A stretch of 39,037 bases of DNA from Escherichia phage pO2: the sequence record OR228483.1; one strand, written 5' to 3'. Below are positions 37,191 to 38,873 of the stretch, in pieces. The notes under the pieces are model-generated. The model had not been told where the DNA came from. It saw only the letters and a program-made list of their open reading frames with translations, and did no database searches. Made by a program: the position numbers and the translations under genes. The number at the start of each line of letters is the position of its first letter. Position 1 is the stretch's first letter.

Positions 37191-37264
37191 AGTTAACTCC
37201 TATCAATTTAAGTGATAATCTTCGAGGCCACCTATCAGTCGATGACCTCTCGTCTATCACTCTC

Positions 37265-37636
37265 CTACACTTCCACCGCTACGGTAGTCATCTTGGTCAC
37301 AGTAAGGCCACCAGCAAGCTCGACCGCATAGCGTATCGCCTCGTCTTTGGACCTGAAATCTTTTCCAGCAAGGTGGTAAATATCACCGTTTATTACTTTG
37401 GTCGGCTTGCGGCTGACTGCTATGGCGTTGCTAAGGGAAAGCTCACCCTTCAACCACTGAGAGTGCCAGCGGCATACGCTCTTAGGAGATACGTTGAAGT
37501 CACTGGCCACCTTCGCAAGCACAGAGTTAAGTCTAGAAGAGCTGCATTGAGGCTGGCGCACCAAGTCGTATGCCTTTGCTACTCGGATTTTAAACTCGAC
37601 CGTGTAGCTGTTGCGGGCTGTCGTAGTTGTGTTCAT
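37265..37636 (-). CDS. Early helix-turn-helix (HTH) DNA-binding protein, 123 aa; HTH resembles the IS3-family OrfA / transposase_8 type
   Basis: YTVEFKIRVAKAY...LNSVLAKVASDFNVSPKSVCRWHSQW pattern; AAGGA before ATG; sits where T7 has gene 0.7. Confidence 0.6.
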   Translation of the reverse strand: MNTTTTARNSYTVEFKIRVAKAYDLVRQPQCSSSRLNSVLAKVASDFNVSPKSVCRWHSQWLKGELSLSNAIAVSRKPTKVINGDIYHLAGKDFRSKDEAIRYAVELAGGLTVTKMTTVAVEV

Positions 37637-37666: not shown

Positions 37667-37715
37667 AGTGACAATCAGTCAGGCCCCTCAGTCAAAGGGC
37701 CTGTAGTCTATCACT
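37667..37715 (-). promoter_or_regulatory. Early-region conserved hairpin element (candidate RNase III site), copy 1 of 3
   Basis: AGTGACAATCAGTCAGG ... CCTGTAGTCTATCACT with inner perfect hairpin GGCCC-N10-GGGCC. Confidence 0.4.
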
Positions 37716-37860
37716 CAGCGTGTAAACTATCGTGTATGCGCTTGCGTCTCCTGTAGACCACTTTCAAGAGACGCATGGCCTCCTCGTGGTTTAACCGCCC
37801 GGTTTTGACCAAAATCCTGGCGTTGGTGACGTGGTGCTGGCAGAGACCATAAGTTACCAT
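37711..37860 (-). CDS. Small basic protein, 49 aa, translationally coupled to the Ocr-like gene
   Basis: Hand-found: ATG 37860 overlaps Ocr stop (TGATG); [49 protein letters not shown]. Confidence 0.3.
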   Translation of the reverse strand: MVTYGLCQHHVTNARILVKTGRLNHEEAMRLLKVVYRRRKRIHDSLHAE

Positions 37861-38363
37861 CACTCGCAATCCTCAGCAGCAGGGTCAAACACTACGTTAT
37901 CGTTGATGTCTTCCACCTTCAGGTGGCGACCTATCGCATAGAAGTCTTTTGCACATGCAGTAGCGACCTCAAGAGCTACAGCTTGCACAATTATTTCGCC
38001 TGTTTTAGCGTCAACTACCCAATATTCATCCTCTTCGTCTGCCTCTTCATCCTCAAACCAGACTACATCCAAGCTATTAGACACATCGTTATAAAGCGCC
38101 TCATAGATGCGAGCTTGTAGGATACGCGTTACGTCCTTGGTTTCAGGCATCAGCCCAGAGTCTTCGAACTCGTGGTCTATACCATCAGCAGCCATCACCG
38201 TGAAAATCTCGTGGTAATAGTTCGGGACCTGACCGTCTACGACCTCATGCAGCGCATCGCTGTAGTCATCGCCTTCAGCTATTTCGTCGTACTGAATACG
38301 CTCATTGAACATCTCAACGGTTGCAGCCAGCAGCTCATAGTATGCGTTAGCATTACGTTCCAT
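37860..38363 (-). CDS. ocr: Ocr-like anti-restriction (DNA mimic) protein with about 50-aa C-terminal extension
   Basis: Residues ~15-115 match T7 Ocr ([43 protein letters not shown], acidic tract); 167 aa versus 117 in T7; GAGGA before ATG. Confidence 0.85.
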
Positions 38364-38384: not shown

Positions 38385-38434
38385 AGTGACTATCAGTCAG
38401 GCCGCTATGAGTTAACGACCTGTAGTTAATCACT
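38385..38434 (-). promoter_or_regulatory. Early-region conserved hairpin element, copy 2 of 3
   Basis: AGTGACTATCAGTCAGG ... CCTGTAGTTAATCACT. Confidence 0.4.
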
Positions 38435-38435
38435 C

Positions 38436-38690
38436 TCAGTTAGCGAAATAAGGAGCTGAGACGCCCGCTGTAGGACTCACGGCTATCTGCGAGTCTATCA
38501 GGTAGGTCTCGTTGTCTATACGCACAGTATCTACGCTGTAGTTGCTGAACGGCTTGCTTGAGACCTTGCGCACTACCACACGGTGACGCGCTCCTGTCAT
38601 CTCTTTAAGCTGAATCCACGCATAACCTTTAGTGTTCACGAATACGTCATTGCGATTAGTGATTGTGCTTAAGTGTTTCATAGTGTCCAT
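38436..38690 (-). CDS. Hypothetical first early protein, 84 aa, upstream of ocr
   Basis: Weak ribosome-binding site; no recognisable motif; position has no T7 counterpart. Confidence 0.45.
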   Translation of the reverse strand: MDTMKHLSTITNRNDVFVNTKGYAWIQLKEMTGARHRVVVRKVSSKPFSNYSVDTVRIDNETYLIDSQIAVSPTAGVSAPYFAN

Positions 38691-38700
38691 CCGTTAAGTT

Positions 38701-38757
38701 AGTGACTATCAGTCAGGGCCTTCAGATGTAGACTCAAAGACCCTGTAGTTAGTCGCT
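38701..38757 (-). promoter_or_regulatory. Early-region conserved hairpin element, copy 3 of 3
   Basis: AGTGACTATCAGTCAGGG ... CCCTGTAGTTAGTCGCT. Confidence 0.4.
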
Positions 38758-38873
38758 ATCGGCGCACATTAAGAGTTTATCCAGATTGTTAAAGAGCATT
38801 CCCTTCAGTCAGAGGACTTCAGGTAGACCATTTCAGTGTTGGTCATCACCGTTGTTTCGTGTTGATGTGGTAC

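Follow-up and report, generated by a model that had tools for sequence, protein, structure and literature searches.

The Ocr protein of Escherichia phage pO2 is a canonical Ocr that carries an extra domain of about 50 residues inserted in its acidic tail. The complete coding sequence (ocr, gene 0.3), TGA stop codon included, extends over positions 37860..38363 on the minus strand of the window, i.e., of the whole 39,037-bp stretch of DNA that was analyzed, and specifies 167 amino acids, in agreement with the reading frame and the protein sequence given in a preliminary description of this DNA. The window represents an essentially complete T7-like phage genome in reverse orientation that belongs to the genus Kayfunavirus. 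Its early and replication half is 93–95% identical to Kayfunavirus phages, and ocr is a member of the early region, residing near the left (early) end of the genome in the phage's own orientation. The gene as such is not new: its product is 100% identical to WLJ69906.1, 'protein Ocr [Escherichia phage pO2]', and is already present in the databases as 'Ocr'. The new part is the uncharacterized domain. Searches of the accessible literature for K1F, Kayfunavirus, Ocr homologs and C-terminal extensions yielded no description of it, and genome papers list a 169-aa 'DNA mimic ocr' with the extra domain left unmentioned (PMC8861465).

With regard to the role of the domain, we infer a contribution to protein binding or anti-defence and put the probability at roughly 0.4 that it is a tethered protein-binding accessory through which the range of host proteins addressed by Ocr is broadened or changed. 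The first part of the protein (residues 1–103) would, by homology with T7 Ocr, act as a dimeric, acidic mimic of bent B-DNA and block the clefts with which type I restriction-modification enzymes and the BREX methyltransferase bind DNA. The second part (residues 114–161) is a small, mildly acidic domain predicted as alpha/beta, present as an in-frame cassette in the flexible acidic tail. Its insertion in the tail implies that each Ocr dimer would bear two copies of the domain on poly-Asp/Glu tethers.

The Ocr core and its early-region surroundings

Ocr is the textbook DNA-mimic anti-restriction protein and touches type I restriction-modification, BREX, PARIS and RNA polymerase. Residues 1–103 of the pO2 protein (38055..38363, minus strand) constitute the DNA-mimic domain. 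Pfam family PF08684 (ocr) is matched over residues 7–95 with 107.5 bits against a cut-off of 25 (E 5.5e-31), PHROG 2568 ('ocr-like anti-restriction', phrog_2568) is matched with E 4.7e-54, and phmmer on PDB sequences returned the T7 Ocr structure (1s7z_A) with E 2e-26, residues 8–113 being aligned with residues 8–116. Identity with T7 Ocr amounts to 62.8% over residues 17–94 (tblastn). It had been stated in the preliminary description that the first ~117 residues align well with T7 Ocr; this applies to residues 8–94, where the alignment is strong, while it is looser over residues 95–113. Instead of the last helix of T7 Ocr (about residues 95–108), pO2 has a 10-residue segment predicted as coil plus an acidic run, and the helices modelled by AF2 comprise residues 7–25, 35–69 and 75–95. 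The core has an acidic surface with a net charge of -18, a pI of about 4.05 and 22% acidic residues; for the whole protein, net charge is -34 in pO2 compared to -28 in T7 Ocr. Residue F54 at the dimer interface, which is needed for Ocr dimerisation (PMC9122126), is invariant in 48 aligned homologs. The pO2 protein contains cysteines C137 and C166, whereas T7 Ocr has none (PMC2806950).

The likeness to T7 Ocr thus comprises acidic character, F54, the location in an early gene that is followed by a small gene with an overlap of one nucleotide, and flanking hairpins of RNase III type. The small gene encodes gp0.35 (37711..37860, minus strand; 49 aa; phrog_5058; 'gp0.35' in K1F and EcoDS1), and its ATG overlaps the TGA of ocr by one base (TGATG), like T7 genes 0.3 and 0.4; the two genes are co-linear in phages with long and with short Ocr. 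BLASTP revealed no similarity between gp0.35 and T7 gp0.4. Homologs of gp0.35 on metagenome contigs bear the precomputed Pfam assignment PF26807 'Phage_T7_GP04', a match that was absent in the local Pfam scan of gp0.35.

A hairpin with an internal loop is located just upstream of ocr (38385..38434, minus strand; z = -3.8), at the 5' end of the ocr-gp0.35 mRNA unit, and a similar hairpin just downstream of gp0.35 (37670..37712, minus strand; z = -3.7), at the 3' end of the unit. These coincide with repeated intergenic elements with the core GTTAGTGACTATCAGTCAGG ... CCTGTAGTTAATCAC that are found on the minus strand at 38385–38434, 38691–38765 and 37670–37712, with a weaker copy at about 37232–37264, and that fold as internal-loop hairpins (z = -2.7 to -3.8). 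The hairpins are similar to T7 RNase III processing sites; cleavage at them would divide the early transcript into units, among them one made up of ocr and gp0.35.

Upstream of ocr lies an early ORF of 84 aa (38436–38690, minus strand; phrog_10124), the counterpart of K1F gp0.2. Some relatives with long Ocr and some with short Ocr have this ORF, EcoDS1 does not, and it is thus another variable early gene. An early ORF of 123 aa (37265–37636, minus strand) lacks a PHROG match and has weak helix-turn-helix similarity (HTH_23, E 0.0036); copies with about 57% identity occur in only three of the fetched relatives (L008, L016 and L075). No association was found between the long form of Ocr and the gp0.2-like 84-aa ORF or the 123-aa ORF.

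A cassette within the acidic tail

In pO2 Ocr, the core is followed by an acidic linker (residues 104–113; 38025..38054, minus strand), the inserted orphan domain ('C-dom', residues 114–161; 37881..38024, minus strand) and the retained acidic tail AAEDCE (residues 162–167; 37863..37880, minus strand). Linker and retained tail each carry a GAGGAT repeat on the minus strand, the left one at codons E111-D112 (38028-38033) and the right one at codons E164-D165 (37869-37874). The long forms share the layout ...EESDEEDE[YWVV...FDPAAA]EEDCE, and the EDCE end is common to pO2 Ocr and the short Ocr alleles. Because the ancestral ...EEDCE terminus is kept after the extra segment, the latter is an insertion and not a pure C-terminal extension. 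Of the earlier proposal of an extra C-terminal domain of about 50 residues, the separate domain stands, as detailed below for its predicted structure, while its position has to be corrected to the inside of the acidic tail.

Short relatives, e.g., EcoDS1 and the IMG/VR loci L011–L018, possess an Ocr domain that is 89–93% identical to that of pO2 in a protein of only 110–114 aa, which ends with ...WFEPEEDCE or ...WFEAEESDEEDCE. Alignment of EcoDS1 and pO2 DNA resulted in a single clean gap of 171 nt (57 codons), and the short allele L017 equals pO2 minus exactly the 53 codons lying between both GAGGAT repeats. EcoDS1 gp0.3 (110 aa) and Ocr of Klebsiella phage Kp1 (115 aa) are short alleles from Kayfunavirus and Przondovirus, respectively, with Ocr domains 79–93% identical to that of pO2 and with termini reading ...EEDCE, or ...EDCDD in the case of Kp1. 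Short alleles differ from the pO2 gene in that they are devoid of exactly the cassette between the GAGGAT repeats, and those of Kayfunavirus are followed by the same gp0.35 as in pO2. The presence of the domain varies within the genus, where it comes and goes as an in-frame cassette flanked by repeats. Long Ocr is encoded in about 71–73 GenBank phage records compared to 162 that carry gp0.35 (about 45%), and in four out of 66 IMG/VR Ocr loci. Linker length ranges from 0 to about 30 residues among relatives, the protein from CLB_P1 being almost without linker. The cysteine of the tail (EDCE or EDCDD; 37863–37880, minus strand, in the window) is kept in Ocr of Kayfunavirus and Klebsiella phages, in long as well as in short forms (L011–L044). 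In T7 Ocr, tail residues E107, E111 and E116 contact BrxX (PMC11317158), and the Ocr tail is a tolerant, functionally relevant site.

The same frame including the extension was present in the 120 best matches from the protein collection, all of which are 162–179 aa in length (>120 clusters). When the extension alone served as tblastn query, it was found in 71 phage records, each time at the Ocr locus. Carriers include K1F (gp0.3), CLB_P1 and LM33_P1 as well as phages of Citrobacter, Hafnia, Providencia, Enterobacter and Salmonella. K1F is the type phage of the genus; its gp0.3 (169 aa), available in GenBank since 2005 and annotated only as putative Ocr, has the same two-domain architecture as the pO2 protein with an inserted domain that is about 70% identical, and its helix surface is a distinct variant that reads SLYEAIACAKELYEEGFHMQV as opposed to a 21-residue stretch in pO2. 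The suggestion that the extension might be an ordinary feature of many Ocr homologs with no fold of its own is therefore accurate insofar as it is common within one genus, K1F included; the domain does have its own predicted fold.

On the basis of this distribution, the chance is negligible that a frameshift, an assembly error or the loss of a stop codon artificially joined Ocr to a separate downstream ORF. A lost stop near residue 117 had been considered in the preliminary description, and one metagenome contig set indeed has both parts in different frames due to an extra G in a G-run. On the other hand, more than 120 independent clusters and about 71 finished phage genomes, that of K1F among them, share a single frame; a clean in-frame indel, and no stop codon, sets the short alleles apart; and gp0.35 follows as the true downstream gene with its 1-nt overlap in long and short forms. 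The conserved frame, also seen in 48 aligned variants, the clean in-frame indel and the dN/dS value of 0.39 reported below exclude a sequencing frameshift.

The contig set with the split reading frame (L005–L007; Logan contigs, SRR33193082-84) stems from three samples of one study. The extra G is located in a TGGG run within the first codons of the domain and gives rise to a 117-aa Ocr and an overlapping ORF of 59 aa, which points either to natural loss of the domain or to a homopolymer error that recurred. In another variant, P0084 from the protein collection (167 aa; seven contigs, the longest of 38,886 bp), the domain breaks off after ...GRHLK and the C-terminus of gp0.35 (...KRIHDSLHAE) is joined to it, which implies a deletion fusing ocr and gp0.35.

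Predicted fold and relatives of the inserted domain

Residues 114–161 are predicted to form an autonomous beta-beta-alpha-beta-beta domain. Modelling of the domain alone by AF2, based on 25 aligned variants, gave a mean pLDDT of 90.7 and a pTM of 0.73 with the topology beta(2–5)-beta(11–13)-alpha(18–30)-beta(35–38)-beta(44–46). The same elements appear in the full-length model with pLDDT values of 84–91, while values are lower for the linker and overall pTM is 0.52. The overall value together with the weak linker suggests two independently placed domains.

This model bears on a structural explanation, according to which the domain lengthens or caps the DNA-like rod or adds an oligomerisation contact and thereby tunes affinity or range towards type I restriction-modification enzymes and BREX instead of providing a further target. 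All 25 variants of the domain are acidic (mean net charge -4.8, range -3 to -8; pI about 4.5), the domain sits in the acidic tail that contacts BrxX in T7 Ocr, and it is found only in Ocr proteins, never alone. However, acidic residues make up only 17% of the domain, compared to 22% of the Ocr core and 90% of the linker. Furthermore, the highly variable length of the linker argues against a fixed geometry, the full-length pTM suggests that there is no fixed docking, and the core works without the domain, as judged from the short alleles. We thus regard a structural extension of the mimic as unlikely.

The extension had been described as unrelated to anything known, and this assessment held when the C-terminal residues were searched alone. 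Scans of the approximately 54 extra residues against Pfam, PHROGs and NCBIfam did not provide any family match. A profile search of PDB sequences resulted only in sub-threshold chance matches on VEDINDN (botulinum toxin, cadherin), and HMMER against 1.84 billion cluster representatives in three spurious, likewise VEDINDN-based matches (E 1e-4 to 1e-6), which lie in long, oddly composed or cadherin-containing proteins. In two profile searches of a collection of 5.8 billion clusters, the only matches were frameshift fragments of ocr. A described protein family with significant similarity was accordingly found neither in Pfam, PHROGs and NCBIfam nor among PDB sequences and the 1.84 billion representatives. 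The profile searches of the cluster collections also returned no stand-alone homolog of the domain, a result that carries less weight as the long Ocr proteins themselves were not retrieved from the 1.84- and 5.8-billion libraries with the domain profile, presumably because clusters formed at 50% identity are represented by short Ocr, so that instances may be hidden. For present purposes, the inserted domain is an orphan fold confined to Ocr proteins.

Foldseek with the domain model revealed nothing significant in the PDB. Among the predicted viral structures of BFVD, it matched only uncharacterized phage proteins of 50–93 aa (E 0.03–0.3, TM-score up to 0.78). Fold similarity to the T4 antitoxin Dmd (5HY3_B), AcrIF9 (7CHR), ClpS, which aligns over 40 residues, and the C-terminal domain of ribosomal protein L7/L12 is marginal and partial, and gives no grounds for assuming homology or a common function with any of them. 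Homology with Dmd was rejected upon profile comparison with hhalign (0.2% probability), and the full-domain ClpS-like fold, in which a three-stranded sheet is covered by three helices, was not recovered. A cadherin Ca2+-binding repeat is likewise not present: only VEDINDN resembles the cadherin linker, the matches are sub-threshold, and assignment to cadherins calls for a beta-sandwich domain, the DxNDN motif alone being insufficient, whereas the predicted fold is alpha/beta. Fusion with a T7 early gene was rejected as well, since nothing was retrieved when the extension was compared by BLASTP and tblastn with T7 gp0.4, 0.5, 0.6A and 0.7 and with the first 4 kb of T7; gp0.35 of EcoDS1 is a homolog of the pO2 downstream gene and not of the extension.

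Selection, possible roles and variant loci

Alignment of 48 variants revealed A134, G145, H147, V150, D155, V157, V158 and P161 as invariant residues of the domain and YWVVD, TG, C137 and VEDIND as near-invariant; conservation is best from G145-x-H147 to residue 161. For ten Kayfunavirus alleles, the dN/dS ratio (Nei-Gojobori) is 0.18 in the Ocr core, 0.39 in the extra domain and 0.45 in the linker. Judged by these ratios, the domain is under purifying selection and evolves faster than the core, which could reflect an arms race or relaxed constraint. Aeromonas phages contain a diverged two-domain Ocr with 55% identity overall and about 30% in the domain; synonymous sites are saturated there (pS 0.84–0.94). 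The signal of selection together with this deep copy in Aeromonas phages argues that the domain is not junk, and the existence of natural short alleles indicates that it is dispensable for the persistence of the Ocr core.

Both aspects have to be considered when asking whether the domain is a nearly neutral passenger, i.e., a small stable fold that was captured in a tolerant disordered tail and is kept mainly by linkage. Such a scenario would account for repeated loss, short alleles being about as common as long ones, for the +1 frameshift at the start of the domain in three metagenome contigs and for the truncated, fused variant P0084. It is difficult to reconcile with a dN/dS of 0.39 and several invariant residues in the 48 aligned sequences, with the retention of a diverged copy in Aeromonas phages, where synonymous sites are saturated, and with the compactness of these 39-kb genomes, which rarely keep useless coding sequence. 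We consider it quite improbable that the domain is a mere passenger.

As a protein-binding accessory module, which is the reading that we prefer, the domain would shift the range of targets of the Ocr dimer. Binding of another host defence or host factor is conceivable, as is altered recognition of Ocr by Ocr-sensing systems, e.g., PARIS; for DNA mimicry itself the domain would not be needed, as the natural short alleles indicate. The nearest folds, albeit weak matches, belong to small proteins of phages, among them the inhibitors Dmd and AcrIF9, which we count in favor of an accessory module. On the other hand, the frequent natural loss apparent from short alleles and the frameshift variant would also fit a nearly neutral decoration, and evolution at a faster rate than that of the core as well as the failure to find a stand-alone homolog count against it.

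A more specific possibility, which we rate as somewhat doubtful, is that the domain is an unrecognised anti-defence effector that rides on Ocr as a tethered second inhibitor or as an anti-sensor. It would then neutralise a defence other than type I restriction-modification and BREX or block abortive infection triggered by Ocr (PARIS), and the cassette would be gained and lost according to the hosts met by the respective Kayfunavirus lineage.

Bulky tethered domains might also shield Ocr, hiding it from AriA-like sensors of PARIS or from proteases while inhibition of restriction-modification and BREX is kept. Ocr acts as a trigger of PARIS, and one substitution in Ocr can be enough for escape (PMC9122126); a polymorphism in presence and absence combined with faster evolution fits a host-dependent arms-race trait. 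However, the PARIS-escape position F54 is unchanged, and C-terminally tagged T7 Ocr has still been used with PARIS, such that small additions to the tail are compatible with that use. Shielding as the main role of the domain hence seems improbable to us.

Together with the matched short alleles in sister phages, the natural two-domain Ocr is a ready-made experiment on the ways in which phages may combine several counter-defences in a single polypeptide or conceal a mimic from sensors; much would be gained if the domain turned out to be a second counter-defence. Even an inert domain would be a tidy case of cassette-like gain and loss of a domain via microhomology in a disordered tail. Kayfunaviruses (K1F, CLB_P1, LM33_P1) are used in phage-therapy research, which lends practical interest to host-range determinants of the early region.

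Aeromonas phage vB_AroA_KFSA9 (L003; PQ824399.1) encodes a SAM hydrolase of T3 type and, three genes further on, a diverged Ocr with two domains (172 aa) that is annotated as hypothetical, and so combines two different anti-restriction strategies in one early region. Locus L060 (IMGVR_UViG_638277131) encodes a T7-like Ocr of 140 aa, the tail of which is replaced by C-terminal residues of the gp0.7 kinase (...NIDKQLDAMLMG); it looks like the result of an early-region deletion that fused genes 0.3 and 0.7.
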